Positions 1,733-53,500 of a DNA stretch of 64,000 nucleotides are shown here, one piece after another. The notes under the pieces are model-generated. The model was not told where the DNA came from and searched no databases. It worked only from the letters and a program-made list of their open reading frames with translations. The stretch comes from Geosiphon pyriformis uo1 (taxonomy: Eukaryota; Fungi; Glomeromycota). Made by a program: the position numbers and the translations under genes. Each line of letters begins with the position of its first letter. Positions within the stretch are counted from its first letter, which is position 1. The stretch covers positions 180,052-244,051 of the forward strand of contig JAAOMT010000183.1 of NCBI GenBank assembly GCA_016748015.1. Direction: 5' to 3'.

Positions 1733-2765
1733 TTACTGTAAATCAACGGAGTAAGTTGTTTTCGACTTCCTTCTATAATTTTCTTCATACCAGATTCTGT
1801 CATAACATTGCCTTGAGGTCCGAGTTCTAACTACCTCTGAAACTTTTTCCCACCTTTTACCATATTTCTCAATCGCTTTTTTCAAAGCATTGATCTCCAC
1901 CGGGTTCCATTGCCCAATGTTAAACTTTGCTGAAAGTTTAGATGAACAACGACAAATACGTTTAAGCATGTCTGAGGAACGCCAGGGGATTACTTCTTGA
2001 AATTTTTCCTAATCTTCCCCATATTCATGAAGAGATTTCGCCAATTTTTGTAATTCTTCATCTGTGAAATTGCCTTTTTTAGTCCCCGGAGCCAAATGCT
2101 GGTTATAGCGTTCATATATAAGGTGTGGGGGTCGTCCAAGTTTATGACTTATTTCTTTCCAATTCTTGCCATATTTTTTAATCAGATCTTTCAATTGATT
2201 ATCCTCTCGTTCTGTCCATAGCCCACGCTTTGAATGCGCTATGACGTTTTCATAATGCTTGAATAGTTCCCTATAACTTCTATTTGGAAAATGGTTATCA
2301 CTAATTTTTTTCCATTCAATAGGATCGTTGCCAAATAGTTTTACAGCATTTTTGAGCTTTTTGTCTTCACTGGGGGTCCACTTCACAGTATCAAAGTCAA
2401 ATTCACAATCCTTATTTGTTCGGGTGTGTTTAAATTCCCTCCAAAATTCCTTTAAAGCTTTCGGTGTAAGAGATGGAAAATAATTTTTCTTTAAAAGCTC
2501 CCAATTATTGCCATGTTCCATAAAAGCCTTTAAAAGTATTTTCTTATCCTCAGAGCTCCATTTTTGGTAGGTTTTTTGGCCAACCATTATATGATTACTT
2601 AGTTCAGCAACGGGCAACGATTTTTTTTCCTCTATAGAGGCAGGGGAATTTTGATTTAACCTAACTGATGTGTTAATATGTCGAAGCCCATTTTTATAGA
2701 TTTCGGTGTGTAATAATTTTTTAAATCCTTGACAAGACTGTCTTTATAAAATTCAATAAAATCAT
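1733..2765 (-). pseudogene. Myb-repeat protein, 5 repeats, disrupted (copy 2)
   Basis: ORFs 2009-2617 and 1733-1969 are in the same frame, separated by one TAG (2009-2011) where the paralog has Trp (YGED*EK versus YGEDWEE). The frame stays open upstream to 2743. The likely start ATG at 2765 (MILLNFI) is one nucleotide out of frame. Repeat motifs: WSSED, WTPSED, WTERED, FTDEE, WNPVE. Confidence 0.85.
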
Positions 2766-6978: not shown

Positions 6979-8529
6979 TTATACTTTCTGAAAAGGTAAA
7001 AATTCGGTAGATTCCAAAACCAAGGAAAACTGCCGAGAGACATAGTCTTCAACTACTGATGAGATACCATAATTTGAAAATTTTAATATTGGAGAACATT
7101 ACTCCAGAACAAAGGGATTAGGTGTTATTATAAATGGAAAGATTTTCAACTCACTTTTAGAATTATCGACTTCTGTAGAACTCAAACTATTTTGTCGTGA
7201 AATGCTGGATGGATCGATTTTTGGCAAAGCTTTACTCGTATAAGTAGCCAATGAATGCTTGTGTTCTTTTGAAAGCGAAGAACTTCTAGACTTGACGGAA
7301 ATCTTATCAAATCTCATAATTTCTTTCCTGTTTTCTGAATCCCCCGATTGCCAGTTATACAGTGTCTCCGAAATTTCTTTCGCGGTAGGTCGTTTCTCAG
7401 GATCAGCATCCCAGCATTGTTTCATCATTACTAAATAACATTTAGGGATAATGCAACTTGGGTCAATCGCTGGCCTTAACCCATCACAAATGTTCAAGGC
7501 CAAATCAATATCATGTGAATATTGAAAAAATGGCGGTTTGCCGGTAGCGATTTCATACATAAGCATTGCAAAACTATAAATATCTGCTTTTTGAGTGTAT
7601 TGATGAGAACGCAAAACTTCTGGAGCAACGTACGGCATTACTCCAGTTATTTTAGATGTTTCATCTGTGGGATTATTGGTGTTGAATTTTACATGTTTAG
7701 TGAGCCCAAGATCACCGATGTGACATTTTTTGTGAGAGCGTAGAATGTTTCCAGCATGTAAATCCCGATGTACCAACCCTGCTAAATGAATTGTTCGAAT
7801 TCCTTTCGCAATTGAGGCTGCAAATGAGACTCGGTCGCTCCAGCTTAGGGAACGATATACTTTTTGAAGATGTTGCCGCATGTCACCATGTTTAAAATAG
7901 AGAGTGATGATCCCATAAGCCCTCGTTCCCGGATTTTGTGTGATTCCAATGCAACGAACAACGCAACCTAGATGCTTTGAACATTTATGATATTGTCGAA
8001 CCTGAAAAATGTTACTTTTTAGTTGAAATTTTTAACACTCAAAATATAAATCATTAATCAGAATTTAAATAGTTACCTCATTCAAAAACTCCAATTCTTC
8101 ACTTTCAGTCCCTTTCAAAATTTTCAAGACAACCGGAAAATTCGTATACCTTCGCCAACCATCTTTTTTTTCCTTTTGACCTAGGATAATACCATCCAAC
8201 CAATTGGCTTTAAACACTTTTGCATACCCCCCTTCAGCTAGCGGTTCAATGTTTGTTAAATCTTTATACGGTATCCACGTTACAACTTGTTCACCATTAG
8301 TAGCTTCCAGTTGAGTTTCTTGAATGAATTTATCAATTTCTTGATTACCACTAGTCCAGTGGGGAAAATATTTTCGAAACCTGGTAGAATTACATGGTTG
8401 ACACCACGTCTTTCCGGTGTTTGGTTGATTACATTTTGTACATGTCCCATACTTCTCGAGACACATTTTAGAGATGTTTTCAGAGTTAAATTTGAGAGAT
8501 TGGATTGGCAATTCCTTAGTTTCGGACAT
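6979..8529 (-). CDS. tyrosine-kinase-like (TKL) Ser/Thr protein kinase
   Basis: Exon 8529-8077, intron 8076-8002, and a probable second intron 7154-7056 (if unspliced, the stop is at 7099). Motifs: AEGGYAKV, VVLK, HRDLHAGNIL, DLG, YVAPE, DIYSF. The N-terminal CTKC..WCQPC..WTSGNQEIDKFI segment is typical of the kinase family expanded in Glomeromycotina. Confidence 0.92.
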
Positions 8530-9951
8530 TTTGAGTGGTGAAATATTTATCTAAGGAGTCGAAAATTTATTTTTGAGGAAATGTGGATTTCGAACTAAGG
8601 GATTTTTTATTAAGCGCAGATATATGCATGTATAAATAACTTGAATGCATAATATTAATAATAGCTGCTCATTAATGATTGTGAACAGGTTTAAACTACT
8701 ACATGTATTTTGTATTTCCTTGCTTGTCACACTTCCCATTACTTGTACTTTATCTTTATTATATATAGCATCGCAAGATTTCTCACAACATAAAATAAGC
8801 AGAAAATTTGTGCCCTTGATAAATTCGGAAAGCATTTCATAAAAAAAATATGATTTTCTTTTGTATACAGGTTAACTTATATAGTAAATTTGAATTTCTA
8901 AATCAATATATTTTTTTATTGAAAATGTGAGAGAATCTTTTTTATCAAGTCTGGAAAAGGAAAACTTGTTGGAATTTAATTTCTTTTTTTTAAAACTTAT
9001 TAATATTTTCACAATGTCCAAATATAGTTGAAATCAAAAAAAGTAAAAATATATGCCTCAAATCTTGTTACAGATTTAGTTAACAAAATTTTCATTTCTT
9101 AAAAGTTATCTATCCAATAATTTCTTTTTAAGAAAATAATAATCATTCATGTCTTATTTTTCGCTTGTAAGAAATGTATCATATATTGCTAATTATTTTA
9201 TAAAAGTTATTTAATTTCGAAATATAATATTTTATATTCACTAAATAAAAACTATAATACCTTTAATTTAAGAGTTAATAGATTTCATTTTAAATGCAAG
9301 AAACAGATGTTTGAAATCGAACAAATTTAAAGTATTCTAAAACAGCCATTTTTAATTTAATACAAATTTTCAGTAACAAGTTTAGCCATTTTTAATTTCA
9401 AATTTAATTTAATAAAAAATTATTGTTTCTTTTTTATCCTAAACCCCTTTAAGTTTTCAAAATTGAAAATGAAACGAGAAAAATAAAATGAAATAAATTC
9501 AATTCAATCTATTTTTTGGTCACAAAAAAGGATTTTTATCTGTAAACTAATATAAAATTTAATCAAGCCTTTCCCTTTTTTTAAAAAAAATTCAATAATT
9601 TCACTCCCTCTAATGAGAATGTCTATTTGGATAATATAGCATGTAATTATATGTTGAAGAATACCTTAATAGAATGAAAAAAAATTTAAACCCAAGAATT
9701 TTTAATTATTTTACAAAACTTTAATGAACAGAAAATAAAGCTTGAAGTTCGATATGAGTAGCTACTGAGTAAATTTTTTTAGAAGGTAATAATTAAAATT
9801 AAGCTTCTTTATTTTACAACGATCGTCGCTCATTTCTATTAAATTATTTAGCCAATCATCATTTGATGCAAGAATAAAAAGTTGATTAATTAAGCTGAAC
9901 TTGTCTATCATTTTTCATTTAGGCCAAAAAAAACGCAATCATTGACTTCGG

Positions 9952-10989
9952 ATGATGTTATCGAATGTTTTCAAGATTGGCAGGCGCAAGCGGACCCATT
10001 TTTTGGGATGTCGTGGTAAAGCTTCACTGAGCGAAATTCAGGCCACTTCCCTTCCGCAGTTGAACCATAATAAGAATGGAGAATCTGACTCTTCGGCTGA
10101 CATAAATAAATTAACCCTAAATGAACCACTCGCCGAAGCAGACGTAAATAAATTAACCACAGAATCAAACAGTAATAAAGTTTCGAAGATTTACAACCAT
10201 CATAAATGGACAGTCGAAGATCAGAAATTATTAATCGAGGCTTATAAACAACATGGCTCAGATTGGAATTATATTGCTAAAACCTATTTCCCAGCCAGGA
10301 AACCAACAGCTTTATATTCACAATGGAACCATTTAAAAACTAGCGGGTTGGCAGATAAAGAAAATCTTAATCTTTATTCTCCATGGACGCTTAAAGAGGA
10401 CACTGAACTTAAAGCAGTGGTGGGAAATTATGGAGACGGTAGGGTTGATTGGAAAGCTATTTTATCGACAGGCAAATTTCCTAATAAAAGCACCAAACAA
10501 TTATCATCTCGTTATACCAATGTATTAATGCAAACGAAACGTGGTGGATGGACGCCACAAGAAGATGAAAAATTATTAAAATTAGTTCAAGAATATGGGA
10601 ATCGATGGACATACATTAGTCAAATTCTCAAAAGACCACCTAATCGCATTAGAGCACGGTACACAGAAGACTTGGCTCCAGATATTCAAAAAGGCCCTTT
10701 AGAAGATTATGAATACCAAAAATTGGCTAAGGCTCTTGAAAAATATGGCGAAGATTGGGAAGAAATTCAGAAAATTTTCCCTAAACGTCCTTTGAGTCAA
10801 ATTAAATTTTATTGCCGTAATTCACCTAAAGTTAAAAATTTCAAGACTGGACCATGGGATTCGGCCGAGATACAGGCTTTTAGCAAAGCATTGACAAAAT
10901 ATGGTAGAGATTGGATTAGAGTTGCAGAATCAGTTGCGACAAGAGGTCCAATACAATGTTACCGCAAATACTTCAGTGCAAAAATATAG
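9952..10989 (+). CDS. Myb-like DNA-binding repeat protein, 5 repeats, intact (copy 3)
   Basis: Intronless 345-aa ORF with repeats starting WTVED, WTLKED, WTPQED, LEDYE and WDSAE, followed by (H/Y)G..W and mostly (F)P.R motifs. Confidence 0.92.
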   Translation: MMLSNVFKIGRRKRTHFLGCRGKASLSEIQATSLPQLNHNKNGESDSSADINKLTLNEPLAEADVNKLTTESNSNKVSKIYNHHKWTVEDQKLLIEAYKQHGSDWNYIAKTYFPARKPTALYSQWNHLKTSGLADKENLNLYSPWTLKEDTELKAVVGNYGDGRVDWKAILSTGKFPNKSTKQLSSRYTNVLMQTKRGGWTPQEDEKLLKLVQEYGNRWTYISQILKRPPNRIRARYTEDLAPDIQKGPLEDYEYQKLAKALEKYGEDWEEIQKIFPKRPLSQIKFYCRNSPKVKNFKTGPWDSAEIQAFSKALTKYGRDWIRVAESVATRGPIQCYRKYFSAKI

Positions 10990-24967: not shown

Positions 24968-26714
24968 TTATTCTGATAAATGAATCCAAGTTAAAGTCCA
25001 AAAGATTATTGTATAAATTATGGTCATCCCATTAGGTTGATATTGTAGAGCACTACTCCATTCAATCGTATCATTTGTTAAACTTGGCGTATAACCACCA
25101 CCATCTTCTGGTTCATTAATCTCATCATTAATGTCCCCATCTTCAGTCGGAATATTGTCGGTTCCATTATTTGGTTGTTCAGGTTTAAAGTTAGTTATCT
25201 TCTTTTTCGGCAAAGGCCCGGAGTCAACAAGGGCCAATGGATTCCAAAGCATCCACCATTCATCTACGCCTGAATCATTTTCTAGTATTTTCGCCAGGAT
25301 TTTTGAATATTTTCCATCATTATCACCATAATATTGTTTTGCTGCATATAATGGAACCAAAAAATAAATAGAGTTTTCATTTTTTGGCAACCCTTTTTTC
25401 ACTAAAAAATCTATTGCTGTTTTAATTGTTGCTCCTTCTTTTGTTTTTGCCTCCCACAAATTAGGGGTACCTGGAATTTTTACTGATAGGCGTGCTATGT
25501 AGGTAAGAGCTATGAGGTTAAAATATTGATAATGAAACGGCCTCTGAAAAAGATAGTGGAGATGTTAAATTATTGAAAAAAAGGGGAGTAACTAATTATA
25601 TCAAATTTAAAGTTGAAAACTTACTGTACGACCACTTTCCAATTCCTGTTCACCCGATGAAGAAATTTGTTCTTGGAATTGTCGATTCATATAACTCGTT
25701 ATAAGTCTGGAAGCCTTTGCGTCTTGACCTGTCCAAGCGAGATAAGTTGCCAATTGAACAATATAAAATGTCGCGTGATTATTCCCAGCATTTCTAGCGC
25801 CAGTCCCAAATTTGCTTTGAATAAGCCAATCAGCATATTGTCTGAACCAAATTTTCATGTCATACAAAAATTTTTTGCCGCCCGATTTGGACCTTCCAAG
25901 AATTTCAACACAACCTGGTATAAAAACCTTTTCGAATTTATGAAATATATCAATTATAAAAAATTTACACGTCAATTTCCTTATCAGAAAGAATGCTTAA
26001 GTGACTTACATAAAATCTTAAATCCAGAATTCCTTCAACGCGTCCGACCCAGCTATCAGGAAAACCAGGTCCTCTTATCACCTGTCCGTATTCAACACGA
26101 GGCGTCATACCGGTATTTTTATCCAGGAACCAAATATTTAATAAGTCAACTGCCTTTTTGGCATACTCTTCATCATCATACAGAAAATAATATATCGTTA
26201 ACGCGAGAACATCTGTGATCATGTTTCCTGACTCTTTTGGGTCGGCTAGTAATTTCAAATCAGACGCGAATAATCCATCTATTCGCTTGTATGGACAATC
26301 AATCATGGGATTTTTTACTCTTCGAATTTTTGAACAATCTGCATGAAGATACGGTGCCCATGAGTAGTATTCATGTTTATTACCGTTTGGTGGTATTTGC
26401 ATTCCTCTGCCTGTTGTCACCGTGTATGAGCCTTTATTCACTAGTGCGCTGTTAGCTTTCGCCTTAAGACTTCTAAGGGCTGCTTCTGCTATCCCAGGAT
26501 CTGTTAGATTATTTTCCTTGAAATATTTCAAGCCACTAATACTTATTAAATCAACTTGTAGGCCGGCTGCAAAAGGAAAACTTTCAATTAATAACAATTT
26601 TCCTTTTACAATGAAATATTGATTCAACTTACCATTTGAGAATAATACTTGAAACGAGATAAAAACTGCAGTAAAAAAAAAGTTTCTAATTTCGAAAAAA
26701 TATTTTGTTTTCAT
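24968..26714 (-). CDS. secreted alginate-lyase-family (PF05426-like) polysaccharide lyase, probable GPI anchor
   Basis: Introns 26632-26567, 26009-25928 and 25624-25544. Motifs: PPNGNKHEYYSWAPY, YKRIDG, WFLDKNTGMTPRVEYGQVIRGP, GILDLR, NNHATFY, QISSSGEQELESGRTRPFHYQYFNLIAL. N-terminal hydrophobic signal and C-terminal hydrophobic tail. Confidence 0.88.
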
Positions 26715-28759
26715 GTTTTTAACAAACTATAAAATAGAACTGCTGTTTTGACAAAATTGAATAGATTTCAAAAAATCAAAGAATTATTAAAAGTACACAA
26801 AGTTACAATATGCAAGAAAAATGTAGAAATTTATAAAGAAAATTTTTGAATAAAACGTGTAATTATAAACAGGTAAAATTATGTTACAAATGAAGAGTTT
26901 TTTAAGGAAAGGTGGACCCAATCAATGGGATTAAAGCTGGAAAGATGAGGCGATTTGATGTTGTTGGATAATGTTACAAGTTTGGTCAACCAAAAGCAAC
27001 AAAAATAAGGGAGAAAATAGGAGAGAAGAGAGAAGGAGAGAGAAAAGGGGAAGACCAAGGAACCTTGGGAATCAAGGCCCACAGAAAAAAGGGAAAAATA
27101 ACCAAAAAACCTTGTGTAGTTTCTGGATTTCTTTTTATAATATTTCTTTTTCATTATCCACATGGTAATCGTCTAATAACCACATGACAGTCGTGAATCG
27201 GGAATGATCAGGTTTAAAACATTTGGGTAATTTTAATGAATCATCTATGTATCACAAGGTAAATTGAATAAGATATTACCGAATAGAACAATGGATTCTT
27301 GATTACTTAATGTGGAATCGAAAGAAAATTTTGAAACAAAGTTTTTTTATGGACAAGACTTAGATATTGATAAATATTTCGATTGTGACTTTTCATATGC
27401 GAAAAAGGGAACGAAACGAACTTGACCAATCTAAAGTTATTAATTATTCATCAAAGAGAATCAATAAGGAGATTTGTTTATTCATTGTTAATAATATCCA
27501 GGGGGGTTTTGTTTACTTATATTTACCAGTTTCAAACCGATGACACAGTCATTCCATAAATAAGGATATAAATAGGGTTAATTTTAGAAACCATGAGCTT
27601 TAACGAAAAACATTGCAAAAAATTACTGTTTAAAGATTTTTAATGATAAACAAATTGCTACAAGTTTTGTAATCGTATCCACAATTTCTGAATTAATTTG
27701 CTTTGATATTCCTTTTTTATTAAAAAGCCACAAAAATTTGATGAGTTGGGTAAATTTTTCTCGTAAAAGAATATCCCAAAAAGGTTGAGTAAATTTCACT
27801 AAAAGTGTTTCATAGTTATATTAAGATCTTTGAGTTTCGTGTGAGGAAACAAACAAAAACACTGTTTTTAAAATCAAGGATTAAAAGTTAATCAAAATAT
27901 CATTTAAAAGACTCGGTCACTATATCTGACTGGATCTAATAATTTTTTGGTGAAATCACACAATCAAAACTAAAAACATTGACTTTTTTATTTCTAATTT
28001 AAACTCGACTTGGCAAATGTTTGTAAGATTAAATTAAAAAGGTTAAATTGTGTTGATGAATTTTTCGTCATTAGTTTCAGAAAAACTTTAAAACTAAGAA
28101 GTGACTAGATCATCTAGTTCATAAATTTTGCAAAGATAAAGTTATGATAATTTAATCTAGAACAATAATACAATAAAGTTATGATAACTTGGAACAATAA
28201 AATAAAAATTGCGGTTATGTCTTTTAAAAATTACTTAGTTTCATACAAGATTAATTTTGATTAAAATGCAAAAAAATAATTTGAATAAATGATTTATAAA
28301 TTTGAATTTTTTTACCGAAACATTAATAGAGACAATACATAAAATATTTTTACACAATGTTAAAAAATAATTTATTGTATGAAATTTGAAATGACATATT
28401 AAAATTAATATTCATACTAATATTTTTGTAATAAAATAATAAGCGTTCAAATTAAAAAATTTAATTCAAATTTTAACAATTGAAAATAGAAAAAATCAAG
28501 AAATATACATTGACTTTTTTAATTAATATTATTTATTTGTAAATATAACCGAAATTATAAAAATTTAATAAAATTAAAATAAAAAATAATAGAATTTTAT
28601 TTTATCTTATTGAATTTTATCAATAAATTTTATATTTTGAGCATTTTAATCAAAAAAACATAATATATCACTTTATAACAATTGTATTGTTATAAGTTGA
28701 AGTAACATGTTAAGAGATAGCAGAAAAAAAAGTAACTAAAAACAATATAAAAAATCTTA

Positions 28760-31900: not shown

Positions 31901-34135
31901 TGGAATCATTAATTATCCCCATTGCCATTCCATTCCGTTCCCTTAAAGTTATCATTGGGAGGTGTCACTTATTTCATACGCGTTTACCACTTTTTAAATG
32001 TAAATGTAATAATGAAAATTTCCAATGTTTTTGGTTAGTAAGAATAAGATTCTTACGTGAACAAATATTAATTGATCAAAATTGAATGTGATTATTAAAA
32101 AATTTTATTGATCGTCAAAACCTATGTACTTACAATTCGGAGAAAACCTATGCTCTCTTGGTAAGCAAATGAGACTTGTACTTGTTATCAAAAACATAGA
32201 ACTTTCAAAGAAACTTTTATATTTCATCACTTTTTTAATTAAATTTTTAATTTGATGAAATCCCTTTACAAATAAAGCTGTTGCATTTGCAGCATATGTT
32301 ATATCTGATTATATCAAAATTTTTATCATTTATTTTATTATAGATTTTATCAACAAATAAAAAATTTTTCTCTTTGTTAAATCTTTTTAAAAGGGTAATA
32401 CTGTATTTGAGAAATGAGGTTTGCAATATTTGTAGATTTTACATCATATTATTTTCAAACCCATTATATGATCATAAATGCAAAATATAACTATTATAAT
32501 TTAAAGTTAGAAGTTTATAAACGCTTTCTTTTATAAGTATTGAAAAATTTTTATTTAAAATTATGAAATATTAATATATTTTAAATTATTTTACACTTTT
32601 TTTTTTGAACTTCGTTTAAGCAATATATTAATATAAAACTTTCAATCTTAAAAAACCCCTTTATTTTATTCTCAAAATTTTGCTTTAGATAATTTTGAAG
32701 TATCGTCCAATCCTATTTTTACAGTGATACTAATGAAGTATTAAGAAAATATTTATAGAGATGTATACTGTAAAGTTAAGCCCATTCGTCCTCACTGGTA
32801 TTTACCTATAGGATATCTCAAGAAATCAAAATAAATTTGGAATATTAGTGCCCAAAGTGCTTCCATCAAGCCTTTTTATTGATATTATCTATAAAAAGGC
32901 CCAAAATCATTAGATTATCGATAACGCTTTGCTCAATATATAAAGTGAATTTCATTAACTAAAGATAGTCAAAATCAACTCATTTGAAGATATCTAAACC
33001 CTTTTTGAGCAAGCCGATTTACTCATGATAATCAATCATCATCATCATCATCATGATGTCCTTTTTAAATTTGGATAGCCAGTTATATTAAATTTCCTTA
33101 AAAGATGTAGTTTCATAACTCCTTAAATGAAACATTTCAAAAGTTTCTGGATAAAAAAAGTACAGTTTCTTATTAAAAGAAGAAGCCATAAGAGACTGAC
33201 TGTGGGAACTTTTGAAATTATTTGTTCAGGTCCAGTCAAACCTTTAAATTAAAAGTTTTTCAAAGATCACTCCTACATACTTTCTGAAACTTTATGCCGA
33301 TTGTCGATATTTTTTGCCTCAAAGCAAAGAATGAAAGAATTAAATTAACTATTGGTAAAAAGAAGAACCCATACTAGGCTAAAATGATAGAAGTAGGAAC
33401 TTTGTTTCATTGTATTTACCAATCCTTTGAATCGTACATAATTTACCTTTCTCTTTCATGAGTTTTTTATTAAATCAATACTGATGAGATGAGACGTTGG
33501 ATAAAAATTTCTTATGATTTGGCCAAAAACAATTTAATTTTGAATTTCAAATACCCTCGTTTCGCAAATACGAATAGTCTTTGTTCCTCCTTCTGACAAA
33601 AAAATTGTGGCATTACAACAGAATTCTCAAACATCTCATAATACAGATGAAATTTTAAATTCATTTCCAAACATGAAGCTCGTAGAAAATGATGGATAGC
33701 ATGTCCCTACCATTCACAAAGTCCCTGCATAACTTAACTCAAATATATGCTGAACTTTATTGAGCAATAGCAAAACCCGGTTAAGGAAAGAAATATTTGT
33801 ACAAAACTGCTGTGCGATGATTGCATGCACCTTTATTAGCGTAGATGTGCAGAAACTTGAAACAAATAGGATTTGAAAAGTCAAATTATGAAAAAATCCT
33901 TGAAATAACGTTATTCGAAAGTGGCAAAATTCTGACAAAAAGTTTCAAAACTTGATTGTACTACTTCAATGTGAGAACACGTTTCTATTTTTCTCATGAA
34001 CACTGTTTTCCCTTGTCAAAACATTAGATTCGGAATAGATAAAAATTATCTTGATAAAATCAGATCATCTTTATAATAGAAGATGATCTAATATCTTATT
34101 CTCATGCTTATATAAAATACAATTACGATATATTC

Positions 34136-34180
34136 CCTCTCTCTCTCTCTTTATCCCTTCTTCTTCTTCTTCTTCTTCTT

Positions 34181-34211
<31 letters not shown>

Positions 34212-34224
34212 TTCTTCTTATTCT
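34136..34224 (+). repeat. (CT)n and (CTT)n pyrimidine microsatellite upstream of FKBP12
   Basis: Seen directly; ends about 40 nt before the ATG. Confidence 0.95.
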
Positions 34225-34266
34225 TAATCAACGAATTTTTTTTCTCTTAGTACTAACAATACAGAC

Positions 34267-35422
34267 ATGGTAAGTTTGACGGGAAGGTTGTATTTGTATG
34301 CAAGGCCCATTAAAAATTCTAGAACGTTTATTCGATCTTTTCACCATTCAAATGTTATGCAGGGTGTTACGGTCGAAACCATTAAGGTTGTATCACGCGA
34401 TTTTTTAATATTTTCATTTAAGCTTTGTGGAGATTTTAATTTAACTTTTTGTCACGGGTGATTGAATGAATGACTACTTGTTTTTTAGCGTGGTGATGGA
34501 ATCGTAAGTTCATTTTTCTGAAAACTCTTATATATTATGTCTATATTAATTAATTGCAATGAGGCAATCAAGTAATTTTTTTTCCTTCATCATCTTAAAA
34601 TAATGTAGAACTATCCAACTAAGGTAAAAGTATTGTGTTTAATTTTCTTTGGAAATTCTACATTATTGTCTTTTGACTCAATCTTTTGTTATAGGGCGAT
34701 ACTGTAAAGATTCATTGTAAGATATTTGATTTTTTAAAACTGAATCTCATCTCCATTTTTGCTTTGCCTGATAAGAGCGTCTAATTATTTAATACTTTTT
34801 TCACAATCAAAAGATGTTGGAACTTTGGAAAATGGTCAGAAATTTGACTCATCTTACGATCGGAATGAACCATTCAAGACCAAGATTGGAGTGGGTCAAG
34901 TTATTCGGGGTATTAAAAAGTTCTTATGAATATAGTATTTTCAATCTTATAGAATAATATAGTGATCTAATGAATCTTGTACCAATAATTTATTTAGGTT
35001 GGGATGAAGGTATGTTTTGTTTCTTTTTTTCAAATTATAAAATATTTGTGCTAATTTCAAATTCTATTCAGGTGTCACACAAATCAGTCTAGGTGAAAAA
35101 GCTAGATTAACCATCACTCCTGATTATGGATACGGCAAGAAAGGTGCCGGAAATTTGGTATGTTTGAAACCAAGATCCTTTTTATTTTCAATACATTTTC
35201 ACTTCAGAAATATTAATAATAATCTTAATGGCTGAATGGTAAAAAAATCATTTTCTGCTTAATGAACATACAGATCCCACCGAATTCCACTTTAATCTTG
35301 TAAGTTTTAGATTGATTTATATCACTCTTTGATGCTTTTTTGTCATCTTTATTCACCTTACTTTTTTTTGGCTCAATAATTATGATGATCACAGCGAAGT
35401 GGAACTTCTTGGAATTAATTGA
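34267..35422 (+). CDS. FPR1: FKBP12 peptidyl-prolyl cis-trans isomerase (FK506/rapamycin-binding), 108 aa, 10 exons
   Basis: Exons 34267-34269, 34363-34386, 34489-34503, 34609-34623, 34695-34716, 34814-34909, 34998-35009, 35072-35157, 35274-35299 and 35395-35422 (327 nt, all introns GT-AG) give [108 protein letters not shown]. Confidence 0.96.
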
Positions 35423-36809: not shown

Positions 36810-38026
36810 TCATTTACATAGAACGGTAGTACCGTCAGCATGACACGCTGTACTAGATGGACAATGGCGTTCTACATTTTTGCCATTATCACATGTATAG
36901 AAAATTGGATCGTTTCCGGAATCCTTACATGTCATTTGACCTTGTTGTGAGCAAGATGAACCATTTGAAGAAGTGGTAGTGGATGGACTAGCTGGTTTTA
37001 AAGGGGTAACATTTGATGGATCTGGCTTACTAGTTGTTGCTGATGATGGTTTCTTGGTATTCTTTGATTTCTTCTTTTTGCCAGATTTTGGCTTTTTACC
37101 AGTAGTTGGTTTTGATGGAGTTTGGGTGGTGGTTGGGGCTGTGGTGGTTGAAGCTGTGGTGGTTGGAGCTGGGCTGGTTGAATCCCCTTTTCCTGAACCA
37201 ACGATCTTTAATCCCATATTAGCATCAACATCACTCTGTAGTGGACCACTACCTTTCTCATTACCACGATTAGCTGAATCACCAGTTGGAGAAATAATTG
37301 TTGGGAACTTTGGAGGTAGATTAACACGTGTGATATCAATGATTGGTAATGGTTTGGTTGATTTTCCGACAATCTTCACGTCGGCACAATTCTGGTAGAA
37401 TTCACGATTACCAAGGGCATTAATCCATGACCAAGAGAAAATACATTTACCCGGTTTATCACATGTTGGAGCGTTCTCTGGAATTTTAACTTTCCATGAG
37501 AAGAAAATATCTGGACAAGTTCGATGATAGGTTGCAATCACCGTATACGTGACACCACCATCGTATGATAGAGAGAATTCGCAGAGACCACCATTATGAC
37601 GAGCTTGATCACGATCAGCGTCAGCGGCTGTTAAAGCGTTTGGAAAGTTTGGATTCCAAAATTTGACATCGATAATTTCACCAGCTTTATAGACTTGTGT
37701 GACCTTTGTGTCAGGCTGATAACCACCACATGGGAATGGCTTTACGGGACAACCGGCTCCACCGTTATATGGAGCTGTGATACAAGCAAAATCTTTTGTT
37801 GCAGCATTCGGATTCAATGGATGACCTCTTTTTGAAAACAAAAACAAAAAAAAAGTATAGAAAGAAATTTGAGTTAGATTTCGAATTTGATTTAAGACCA
37901 TTAAATAATTCAATTGAATCATAAATGAAACAAGGCAAACCTTGGAAGAGGATTCATCATACTACTGTGTGCGGAAACCAAAGCGAGCGAGGAAGCCAAA
38001 AAAGCGAGAGAACCAGTAAACTTCAT
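36810..38026 (-). CDS. AA11-like lytic polysaccharide monooxygenase with C-terminal Cys-rich (CBM19/X278-like) module
   Basis: ATG 38026, signal peptide MKFTGSLAFLASSLALVSA followed directly by His (HSSMMNPLPR), intron 37940-37828. Motifs FPCGG, ARHNGGLCEFSLSYDGG and WSWINALGNREFYQNCADV, then an S/T/K linker and a 6-Cys tail. Confidence 0.9.
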
Positions 38027-39509: not shown

Positions 39510-39607
<98 letters not shown>

Positions 39608-39623
39608 TAGTAGTAGTAGTAGT

Positions 39624-39657
<34 letters not shown>

Positions 39658-39673
39658 TAGTAGTAGTAGTAGT

Positions 39674-39771
<98 letters not shown>

Positions 39772-47522: not shown

Positions 47523-50500
47523 TCAACTGTCGCCGAGCCATCGAAGTAACATATCCTTTAGTTGTGGGATTTTTAATGGTTTCGTGAGGTAATCATTCAT
47601 CCCATTTTTCAGACATTTATCTCGAGTGCCTTCTATCGCGGAAGCGGTTAATGCAATAATGGGAATTTCCGATTGAGGTGGCGCCATAGCACGAATAGCT
47701 TTGGACGCTGCATATCCTGACATTATTGGCTGCAAGAGAAAAAAAGTAGTATAATTTATTACAAATTTTACAATCGTGTTAGATTATTCAAGCAGGACAA
47801 AAGAGAAAATTACCATTGCACAATCCATTAATATCAAAGATACTCTATTTTGTTGATTCAAGACCTCGGCAGAATCAATGGAAGCGCCCAGTTCCCTTTG
47901 CAAAATATTCACCGCTTCTTGACCATTGGTGGCACATATTGATTGGTAACCCAGCGCTTTAAGCTGATGTTGAAGAACCTAAATAACAAGTTAAATGTAA
48001 TTATAGCCTATATACGCATTTCAATATAGCAAAAAACTAAGGAAACTGACCTTCAAATTAATAGGATTATCCTCCTGACAGCCAGAATTCATTTCAAAAA
48101 TTATGAGTTTCAATAGTTTCACTCACAGAAATCCAAATATAAAAACTCACATACCACGCATAAAATACACTTTGATTTTGAGACAACTCTAGTTCGAGAT
48201 TTATTAGATGGTTCTGAATGTGTTGGATTTTTGATTTCACTGGAAGCTGATCTCTTCCTCGGGGGCCTTGGGATAATTGACTTCAATCTTGTCTTTGGTA
48301 TCTTTTCGAAGGGTAAATGGGCTAATGATACATCTGTAGTCTCCTGCATTTTTTCAACTTCTTTAACTCGAAATTGGCCAAGTGACAATTCGGCTTGAGG
48401 ATTGGTTTCATCCATTTTAGCTGAGTTGAGCATGTCCATATTTTGCAAACTATCTAATAGTCGTCGCTGCATGATAGGTTTACAGTATGTCGCCGTATGA
48501 CCACCAATTTTTCTTGTTAATTCTTTGCCCAAAGCATAGCCTTCCAAGGATCGAAATACGAATAATCCAATAGCTAATCTGTCTTTTCCACAAATGGATT
48601 GAAATTCTTTTGCTGTCGTTAATACTTGGTCAGCATTTTTTTCATCAACATTAAAGAAAACTACATCACATGGTGAGCAGTGATATTGATCACGCAAAGC
48701 TTTTGTGGCTATTACTGCCTTGGAGCCATCTTCAAATGCTTCAACTTTTTGAACGCTAGAACTAAGCATTGTTACCATAGCAGATCGAGAGGCTTCAACC
48801 GAATCAACAATGAAAATTTTCTTTGATTTTACTATGGGTGGTATAANNNNNNNNNNNNNNNNNNNNNNNNNNNNNNNNNNNNNNNNNNNNNNNNNNNNNN
48901 NNNNNNNNNNNNNNNNNNNNNNNNNNNNNNNNNNNNNNNNNNNNNNNNNNNNNNNNNNNNNNNNNNNNNNNNNNNNNNNNNNNNNNNNNNNNNNNNNNNN
49001 NNNNNNNNNNNNNNNNNNNNNNNNNNNNNNNNNNNNNNNNNNNNNNNNNNNNNNNNNNNNNNNNNNNNNNNNNNNNNNNNNNNNNNNNNNNNNNNNNNNN
49101 NNNNNNNNNNNNNNNNNNNNNNNNNNNNNNNNNNNNNNNNNNNNNNNNNNNNNNNNNNNNNNNNNNNNNNNNNNNNNNNNNNNNNNNNNNNNNNNNNNNN
49201 NNNNNNNNNNNNNNNNNNNNNNNNNNNNNNNNNNNNNNNNNNNNNNNNNNNNNNNNNNNNNNNNNNNNNNNNNNNNNNNNNNNNNNNNNNNNNNNNNNNN
49301 NNNNNNNNNNNNNNNNNNNNNNNNNNNNNNNNNNNNNNNNNNNNNNNNNNNNNNNNNNNNNNNNNNNNNNNNNNNNNNNNNNNNNNNNNNNNNNNNNNNN
49401 NNNNNNNNNNNNNNNNNNNNNNNNNNNNNNNNNNNNNNNNNNNNNNNNGATTTCATTTTGAATAATATGCCATAACTTTAAAGCAAAATTTATTACCTTT
49501 CAGGATCAGACTTCACATATTTCGGTAATTCATTCGACCTTTCACAGAGTAACACTAATTCAATGTGTTTGGCGCCAGCACTTTCCCCAAAAATTTCAAC
49601 GGTTTTTTCGACAAGGTCAAATAAATCGAAGGTTCGATTGTTGAGGGTAATCTTATGAGCTTCAAGTTTCGCCGCGTCCAGAATATCATTTACGATGGCA
49701 AGAACTACATCAGAAGCATGAGCCATTATTTGGACCATATCTTTTTGATCGGCAGTGAAAAGGGTGTCCTCGAAAGCAGACAAAATACCAATTATAGCTC
49801 CCAAAGGCGTGCGCAATTCTAAAATAGTTTACTTTTGAGTTTAGTTTATTCAACAAAATATGTAGACAATCTAACATACCATGCGAGGTGTTGGCTAAAA
49901 TTTGACTTTTAGCCTTATTTGCGGCCTCAGCTGCTTCCATTTGTGCTTCACTTTTGATTTTTTCCTCCAAAAGTCTGGAATGAGTTATAGCTAAACTTAT
50001 TTGATTGGAAATCTGTTGCAAAAACGTTTTCTCGGAAGAAGACCAAGTCTCTTTGGGCTTTCGATGAGCGAAAATCCAGCCGCAGGAACCGGAATCCAGG
50101 TGAATAGAAACTGACATTGAAGAGACAGCTTGATTAAGTATTCTGGAAAAATGGTTTGTGTGGCTTTTGACTTCAAAATCAAAAAAACTGTTTTCAGTGT
50201 CAGATTTGCTTTTGATGGGAGCAGATGGGTCAGGTGGAGCTTCTGTGAAAGATGCCAAAAATGAAGAAAGTAGATGTGTAGTCGAATCGATTTCTGGCAA
50301 CCCATCCAATTGACCGCCCAATATATCTTGACTGTTATCAACTGCTTTGCAAGAAACCTGTGTACCCACTAAAGCTTTTATATCTGGGTCATTGGCCGAA
50401 ACAGCCATAATTTTTGCCGAGCCTTTATTCATTGGATCATTGAAGAGGACAAATATTGAATCACAACTAAGAATTCGAAAAACCTGCTCAACTGCGGTTG

Positions 50501-53500
50501 ATAATAATTCTTGAATACTTAATTCGGAACGAATTTTATTGCTAATAGAGAATAATAGCTGTTGCGTTTCGCTTTCGCCACGTTGTTGATCCAAAATTTC
50601 ATGATATAAATTTGAAATATTGATGTTCGCTCGTACACGAGCAATTAATTCACGAGAATTAAAAGGCTTAATCAGATAATCATCAGCACCTTTTCTTAAC
50701 CCTTAAACATTGACACGAGAATGATTAACTATAGAAGAAAATATTTTATAGGTATTTAAGGTACTCAACGTTCTGGTTTTATTACGTACCTTCCAAGCTC
50801 GCCTCTTCGCCTGCTCTTGCGGATAAGAGAATAAAAGGAATGCTTTGAGTAGATGGGTCAGAGCGTAAAATTTTTAATAGTTCAATGCCATTCATGTTGG
50901 GCATCATGACATCTGTTTTACCAAATTAAAGCAATATAAATAATCTAAATAATGTGTAAAAATCAAAAAAAAATTGATTGCCAAATTTACCGCTTAGCAC
51001 AAGATTCGGCTTGAATTCAACATTATTTATGATCCTTAGCGCATGAAGGCCATCGCAAGCACAAAAAATCTCAAACTCAGGTTTCAGAATATTAATGAGA
51101 TAGTCTCTGATGTTAAAAATTAGATTGATTATCTGAAAGCCGTTCTAGGAAGAACCAAGACCATGCTTCAATTCTTACCTCATATCAGCATTATCTTCGA
51201 CTATAAGAACTTTGAAACGTCCTTTTGGATCCTTTGATCCTTTTTCTTTATCCAAAGATGACCTTTTTTTCGAATCTAATCTTGGGGAGGCGATAGACAA
51301 AGTCTGTAAATGCCCTAATGTTGTAGGATTTTCGTCATCTTCGAATTTTGTGTGAAAATCATTGGAGTCATTTTTGCTCTTTATCCATTCTCTGCTTTCA
51401 TCTAAATATAAATCAATATTTTTTGATGATCGATTATCCCATGAGCTTAAACCGCTGATAATATTCTTTTTAGGCAAATGATCGGTTCCAGTTGGGATCC
51501 AAATTTGGAATGTAGATCCAACACCGACTTGTGAAGTCACCTTTATATCTCCTCCGTGACGGTTTACTAATTCTTTAACAAGAGCAAGTCCAATCCCAGT
51601 GCCTTCATGACTGCGGGCTTGTTTTGATTGAACTCGATAAAAACGCTGGAAAATATTAGGAAGTTCCTCTTTTGGGATTCCAACACCTTAGGAGTGAGAA
51701 ATTGTAGAATTCGTCAGGATGGAAAGAAGTCCCTCAAAAAGATCGTCAAATGATATTAGAAGATAAACCTGTATCAGAAACTTCTATAAAAACTACTTCC
51801 CGAGATTCTCTTTTTCCAGGGGAAAGCCGTATAGTTACCGCTCCATCCCATGTGTGTTTGAAAGCGTTCAAGCCTTTATTATGTAAATTGGATAAAGAGT
51901 GAGTAAGATTATTAGAAATATGTTAGCTGTCCAAATTTATAATAAAAATTAAATATTACATAAATTAAATATGATCTTTTCATATAGGTCTAAATCAAGA
52001 TAGACTTCGCACTCTAATTGACTTTCTAAAACTTCATCGACTGGGATGTCGATTATAAGAGTTAAGCCAAAAGATCGAGCCATGCTCTGAAAGTTTAAGA
52101 CCAATTCCCTAGTGAGCCCGGCGATTTTTGTTTCACAATAATATGCTTTCACATGACCTGCTTCAATTCGCGAGAACTAGAAAATTTAACAAAGCGTGAT
52201 AGTTGTTCGTTATGGATACTTATCAAAAACATGCGAGAAATATTTTGGACTTCGAACCAACCTCTAAAAGCGTGTTTACCAATTTGAGTAACCGTCGGGC
52301 ATTGCGTTGAATCATTTCTAAATTGAAAAGAATTGAAGAATCGGGTTCGCATGTGGCAATGGCATCTTCAAGTGGAGCTAACATCAACGTAAGCGGGGCT
52401 AATAATGGAAAAGGCAAACTATCTTACAATTAGAAGAATAAAATATATATATATGAAATGATAAATTTTACTTTTCAATTCATGACTAATGTTTTGAAAG
52501 AACCTAATCTTTTGAAGATTAAGATCGGCTAAAATTTTTGCTTTCTTTCTTTCTTCTTCACGTGAAAGACCATTTTTCAAACTAGAGCTGAAATGACCAA
52601 CTACTAGCTGATGAAATAATAATGAAAATAGCATTAGAGTGCATAATGCTCCCTGGAAGTTGAAAATTTCTTAAGCACCGACCTTGAAAAATTCTAAATA
52701 TTCTTTGTCAAGAGCGCGATGGCTATTAATGCCACATATTAGAATGGCAGTCAAGATACCTTTCCCAGCAAAGGATGTTGATACAGGAAGAAGGATTGCT
52801 CGAGATTCATTAGCGAGTTCAACGACAACATGTTTATTAGTTTTGATGACTTCTTCAAGAGGCCACGTAGTGAGATTGGACGAGGAAGAAAGACTTGGTG
52901 AAAATGTATTATCTTTGTCTGTTGATATTTCTTCAGAATCAGGCGAGTTAAGTAAATAATCCGGGAGAATTCTTTTAGATAGTCCTGTTACGAATGTCAC
53001 TTCCTCGACTCCATCTTTACCAGTTTGGGCGAGTAGATTTTCATCGAAGGTCGTTGCGGCTAAACGAGCTACATAACCTTGACATTTTTTATCAGTTTGC
53101 TTGTTCTCCTCGACAAGGTAAATCAAGGCATAGGGGATATCAGCAACATGATCCCGAAGAATTTTTGTGACTAAATGACAGGAGCTTTCAACAGATTTCG
53201 CACCTTTTGGTTGAGAATTATATTTTGATTATTTACCAAATTTGGCTAAGCCAAAATATTGCAATTTTACATTCTCATACCATGGGTTCCTTTTCCTAAT
53301 TCGCCTAGCGTTTTAAGACGACGAGCAGATATCACCCTTTCTGTTGTTTCATGAACTGCAGCGAAGATCCCAATAACTGTTTTATCTTCAGCAAATATTG
53401 GACTAAAAGCGAAGGACATATAGGACTCTTCATTATAACCGGCTCGCGAGATATAAAGCAAGAGATCTTCGTGATATTGCCCTTTACCGGTCAATGTTAC

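Follow-up and report, generated by a model that had tools for sequence, protein, structure and literature searches.

In a stretch of 64,000 nucleotides (nt) from the glomeromycotan fungus Geosiphon pyriformis uo1 (contig JAAOMT010000183.1, positions 180,052 to 244,051 of the forward strand; the whole stretch is called the window) we analyzed a gene for FKBP12, whose first intron directly follows the start codon and can be read in frame as a mitochondrial presequence. FKBP12, the receptor of rapamycin and FK506, is regarded as a cytosolic protein. Splicing of intron 1 gives the 108-residue enzyme, whereas retention would add a 31-residue leader, and we consider it quite probable from the properties of this leader that the longer product would be a mitochondrial matrix FKBP12. 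The gene therefore likely carries an intron-retention targeting switch of the PTC7-like kind.

Gene model and splicing of the first intron

The gene model comprises ten exons and nine introns and encodes a protein of 108 amino acids (aa). The FKBP_C domain (PF00254) scored above the cut-off on two exons, exon 6 (33.1 bits) and exon 8 (25 bits). Among solved structures, exon 6 is best matched by entries of FK506-binding protein 1, and up to 82 of the 108 residues are identical to those of fungal FKBP12s. Judged by domain, length and identity, the gene product is a single-domain FKBP12.

Transcript evidence comes from one contig of one public run (X1) that covers part of the window; the run is labelled 'probably DNA', yet its contig is fully spliced. 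This contig (99+% identical) omits the 93 nt of intron 1 at GT..AG and joins the ATG to position 34363, and therefore intron 1 is real and spliced. The other eight introns are backed by the same contig through joints, inserted exon letters and one loose end. Relevant features are as follows:

34233..34266, + strand: part of the 5' untranslated region (UTR), unbroken in the X1 contig
34267..34269, + strand: start codon, common to both predicted isoforms and the sole coding part of exon 1
34270..34362, + strand: intron 1, 93 nt, GTAAGT..TGCAG, phase 0, open
34333..34362, + strand: R-10 motif with Arg at -10, Phe at -8 and Ser at -5 relative to Gly33
34357..34359, + strand: second in-frame ATG near the 3' end of intron 1 (Met-Gln-Gly)
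34363..35422, + strand: exons 2-10 (34363-34386, 34489-34503, 34609-34623, 34695-34716, 34814-34909, 34998-35009, 35072-35157, 35274-35299 and 35395-35422, the last with the stop codon)

The start codon lies in a strong context (G at -3, G at +4). Intron 1 corresponds to residues 2-32 of the predicted precursor, and its reading frame runs without a stop into exon 2. The sequence-only reading of this DNA had described an ATG followed by a consensus GTAAGT donor, a TGCAG end at 34362 and an in-frame, stop-free intron of 93 nt coding for four Arg, one Lys and no acidic residue; the window sequence and its translation (31 residues, zero Asp/Glu) bear this out, and the cytosolic FKBP12 start that splicing was said to give is the joint seen in the X1 contig. 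With a GC content of 35%, intron 1 is the highest of the nine introns (19-28% in introns 2-9; ~28% in the window).

The leader can be reached in frame only if intron 1 is kept in full, because nearly all internal splice sites shift the frame and there is no upstream in-frame ATG. In detail, all four other AG acceptors within intron 1 and all but one of its internal GT donors shift the frame, and the one GT that keeps the frame is situated 9 nt before the end of the intron. Alternative splice sites inside the intron were therefore rejected as a source of the leader. A leader of the two-AUG type placed upstream was also rejected, since no other in-frame ATG exists across 34100-34356 and the frame upstream amounts to a short Ser-rich stretch bounded by stops. 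RNA folding of the region 34240-34400 was unremarkable (z 0.48). Farther upstream, a long (CTT)n pyrimidine tract (34126-34232, +) is preceded by a TATA-like box near 34111 and followed by the ATG.

The intron peptide as a predicted presequence

The R-10 motif marks cleavage by MPP followed by MIP/Oct1, according to the definition given in PMC7996597, and is described by Arg at -10, Phe, Leu or Ile at -8 and Ser, Thr or Gly at -5 from the mature start. The window leader shows all three residues at these places, carries a net charge of +5 and contains no Asp or Glu. Its hydrophobic moment of 0.75, a rough measure, lies within the range of ten homologous leaders (0.44-0.80). The predicted double cleavage would release a mature protein beginning with Gly33, which would share its N-terminus with the cytosolic form, from which the initiator Met is removed. 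Searches with the 40-residue peptide yielded no Atlas match above 0.78 and no Pfam match.

An intron that is a multiple of three in length and free of stops is ordinary when taken alone. Among 200,000 null introns of 93 nt each, 22,880 were open in a Markov model trained on introns 2-9 and 23,387 among shuffles of intron 1, i.e., about 12% (11-12%), and introns 2 and 3 are likewise multiples of three but closed, with three stops each. Thus, the observation of an in-frame, open intron in the sequence-only reading is true and not rare in itself. The picture changes with the full feature set (open, at least 3 Arg, no Asp or Glu, Arg at -10, Phe/Leu/Ile at -8, Ser/Thr/Gly at -5), which was found in 0 of the 200,000 Markov introns and in 9 of the 200,000 shuffles. 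Of 901 GT..AG segments in the window with a length divisible by three, one has the full set, and this is intron 1 itself. Composition and exactly placed R-10 motif together exceed chance.

Leaders of homologous FKBP12 proteins

In a first homologue search, exon 6 and its flanks served as query and no leader was included. This leader-free search found FKBP12s with Arg-rich leaders in Yarrowia (P0023), Limtongia (P0024) and Chlorella (P0054), and a second profile search added many more from basidiomycetes, Lipomyces, Saitoella, chytrids, Nuclearia, green algae and one tardigrade. Searches with an 11-row alignment and with representatives gave multi-domain FKBPs for the most part and were left aside. 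We counted registers over 66 N-terminally extended rows, i.e., rows with at least 11 residues ahead of the first Gly. Arg occupies position -10 in 45 of the 66 rows and the full R-10 motif is present in 40 (38 of 63 after dropping identical leaders), whereas in each of the registers -13, -12, -11, -9 and -8 the full motif occurs in only 0-2 of the 66. The window leader fits register -10, the same register as in the homologous FKBP12 leaders, which supports the claim of the sequence-only reading that the intron 1 peptide would act as a mitochondrial presequence.

The residue before the Gly separates two types of leader. In 51 of the 66 rows it is Met, as in genes with two AUG codons; another 11 rows have Gln or Lys, the residues expected from a CAG or AAG acceptor. 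A Met-Val start, which an ATG directly followed by a GT donor would force, was found in 7 of the 11 Gln/Lys rows versus 1 of the 51 Met rows. These seven rows represent four lineages (Chlorella A99, Auxenochlorella, a JGI pair and Nowakowskiella), so that the combined signature occurs in Chlorellales and some chytrid proteins. The start-codon intron design thus appears to recur in unrelated lineages. R-10 leaders with neither Met nor Gln at -1 were seen in Meredithblackwellia (P0202), Ceraceosorus (P0231) and Zopfochytrium (P0205); such leaders may belong to copies dedicated to mitochondria or reflect splice designs of another kind. The records of Prototheca (P0245) and Rhizophlyctis (P0470) begin just ahead of the Gln-Gly junction and look as if gene callers had begun inside a post-ATG intron.

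A tree built from 42 selected cores of FKBP12 unites four Chlorellales-type rows in a supported clade (97/93). The window protein belongs to a group of mostly fungal sequences (100/97), where two-AUG rows flank it on either side. The tree, which is unrooted and mostly unresolved, fits a repeated switching between two-AUG and intron designs.

A pair of records from Auxenochlorella comes closest to the predicted situation. KAL6785763.1 (P0463, 150 aa) is identical to KAL6785764.1 (P0462, 107 aa) except for 43 additional residues, Val...Gln, directly behind Met1; the two accessions are consecutive and their contigs have the same length. The Auxenochlorella annotation kept isoforms only with at least five full-length reads and 5% of the reads of the gene, and FKB12 is listed in the supplement and not in the main text of the same publication (PMC12636532). 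From this annotation we infer that both records are isoforms of one gene. They resemble the window in the Met + Val...Gln + Gly relation of long and short form and in the R-10 motif, and differ from it in coming from the database annotation of a green alga and in the 43-residue insert of unrelated sequence.

Proposed mechanism and alternative explanations

We propose that a minority of transcripts would keep intron 1, perhaps helped by a weak branch point, as no YTRAY match was found in the last 80 nt of the intron. The retained transcript would be translated into a 139-aa precursor and imported into mitochondria, where MPP would cut after Arg23-Ser24 and MIP/Oct1 would then take off the next eight residues (the octapeptide), leaving a matrix form that begins at Gly33. 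Splice choice would thus replace the two-AUG choice of most other fungi and algae. As to the origin, an ancestral AUG1-leader-AUG2 gene with an intron behind AUG2 may have lost its old donor and gained a donor after AUG1, whereby the leader would have become intron; we propose this because the in-frame ATG at 34357 survives, which is a possible relic of an older second start codon. In the idea that one start codon serves two locations through retention of intron 1, the splice, the open frame and the R-10 leader are borne out, and retention and import remain predictions. In a wider sense we lean slightly toward the assumption that a matrix FKBP12, cut back by MPP and MIP to precisely the cytosolic N-terminus, is widespread in eukaryotes and has largely been overlooked, and that the leader moved into a post-ATG intron independently in this fungus, in some chytrids and in Chlorellales, with splicing efficiency setting the ratio of cytosolic to mitochondrial protein.

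Several observations weigh against the retention switch. No intron-retaining contig was found beside the single, spliced X1 contig, which is a weak argument, as contigs drop rare variants, and introns 3 and 9 likewise have no near YTRAY, so that a weak branch point is not peculiar to intron 1. The profile of the second homologue search contained two leaders, which favors look-alikes, and the Auxenochlorella intron is deduced from protein records and not from DNA. A pattern scan for ATG, intron and exon 2, which was confined to introns 57-117 nt long that precede a GVT-x-E-x-I/M start, gave at least 120 loci, and among the matches listed were seven FKBP12 genes (five distinct, nearest to basidiomycete proteins) and 113 non-FKBP loci. 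The post-ATG introns of the five distinct fungal FKBP12 genes measure 74, 68, 68, 109 and 60 nt; four of the five are not multiples of three, and the fifth is a multiple of three and open, but has neither Arg nor the motif. The expectation that orthologous introns would be in frame, open and Arg-rich thus failed in these genes, with a presequence coded in 0 of 5, in a comparison that covered distant fungi. The post-ATG position itself is common to the window and the five genes, and because the same-position intron codes no presequence there, the coding intron appears to be lineage-restricted.

The most probable alternative is a relic: the leader once belonged to a two-AUG gene and now lies in an always-spliced intron, so that the presequence would be a recent fossil with no product. 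The spliced X1 contig as the only form seen, the perfect GTAAGT donor and the ATG at 34357, which persists as if it were the old second start, are in line with such a fossil. We nevertheless regard it as rather unlikely, as the leader has no stop, frameshift or acidic residue and an intact R-10 register at ~28% GC, a composition at which introns 2 and 3 carry their stops; furthermore, the length of intron 1 preserves the frame, and Auxenochlorella has the same design as two annotated products.

According to a second alternative, the leader would be real, but a transcriptional switch would decide whether intron 1 can be spliced, either by a second start site near the ATG or by the upstream TACTAAC..CAG, as in adh4 of Schizosaccharomyces pombe, where the choice of start site governs an intron-coded targeting sequence (bioRxiv 10.1101/226894). 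The 5' UTR indeed holds a TACTAAC (34251-34257), 12 nt ahead of the intron 1 donor, and an acceptor-like CAG at 34264, which is unused in the X1 contig; this pair (34251-34264, +) could serve as a decoy acceptor. Moreover, the chytrid leaders P0209 and P0214 end in Gln with no Met-Val start, which would fit a start inside the intron. In the window, however, the ATG of the leader lies outside intron 1, so that a start within the intron would give no leader, and TACTAAC occurs 12 times versus 5.7 expected. A 5' UTR intron ending at 34264 was rejected, since the X1 contig is unbroken there and the sole GT between 34100 and the ATG is that at 34250. Taken together, a transcriptional switch seems quite improbable. 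Four copies of TACTAAC lie within 73 nt at 39606-39678 (-), which suggests a short tandem repeat.

That an ordinary post-ATG intron is open and Arg-rich by accident is hardly credible: introns at this position are common in fungal FKBP12 genes (five distinct loci, one of them in frame and open) and ~12% of null introns divisible by three are open, but all features coincide in only 0 and 9 per 200,000 null introns, and the motif lies in a register set by homologues.

Comparison with known systems

The sequence-only reading had pointed to a dual cytosolic and mitochondrial FKBP of Neurospora as a precedent. FKBP13 is reportedly such a case; our literature searches did not turn it up. No description of an intron-coded FKBP12 presequence was found in the literature searched, with most subscription journals outside its coverage. 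The retention switch that we favor for the window resembles PTC7 of Saccharomyces cerevisiae, in which an in-frame intron is spliced or retained and the location of the protein changes accordingly (PMC7491326, PMC11653698). The polarity is opposite, as according to these sources retention in PTC7 adds a nuclear-envelope transmembrane helix and the spliced form is mitochondrial, whereas here retention would add the mitochondrial leader. In S. pombe adh4 the mitochondrial targeting sequence also lies inside an intron and is lost on splicing; as described there, a second start site within the intron is used and splicing drops the first 43 codons, whereas the isoforms in the window would share one ATG outside the intron (bioRxiv 10.1101/226894).

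Dual targeting by two AUG codons is reported from Cryptococcus and Neurospora as the design of many fungal proteins (PMC7049704). The two-AUG FKBP12s of Yarrowia (P0023), Cryptococcus (P0261) and Spizellomyces (P0467) share leader type and R-10 register with the window, but have Met at -1 and a choice at the start of translation or transcription, whereas in the window position -1 is Gln, encoded by the CAG of the acceptor, and splicing would make the choice. The cyclophilin NcCyp4 of Neurospora crassa provides cytosolic and mitochondrial forms from one gene, similar to the case predicted here (PMC1618848), and no description of intron retention was found for it.

The conserved, presumably cleavable leader, which fungi and algae share with a few further eukaryotes, points to a matrix pool of FKBP12. 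Annotation would hide this pool, since both mature forms would have one and the same sequence and gene callers choose one form. A start-codon intron would be an economical targeting cassette, and any genome can be screened for it (ATG followed by GT, a length divisible by three, open, R-10), and as Auxenochlorella is genetically tractable, the switch is directly testable there.

Neighboring genes

A kinase-associated open reading frame near the FKBP12 gene matches Mucoromycota clusters at 0.97-0.98, which together with the GC content suggests a fungus of arbuscular-mycorrhizal type. Two open reading frames of the window had no exact counterpart in the collection searched. The protein encoded at 36810-37961 (-) is rich in Cys and probably secreted; it has a Thr/Lys-rich linker, its C-terminus weakly matches CBM_19, and its N-terminal domain gave no Pfam match. 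An alginate lyase family gene (PF05426) with several exons is located at 24968-26726 (-). Multi-repeat Myb-like genes at 2009-2743 (-) and 9946-10989 (+), of which the latter was run against Pfam, flank a tyrosine-kinase-like gene at 7099-8550. Finally, a hybrid histidine kinase with GAF and HATPase domains at 48119-53228 (-) extends into an assembly gap.
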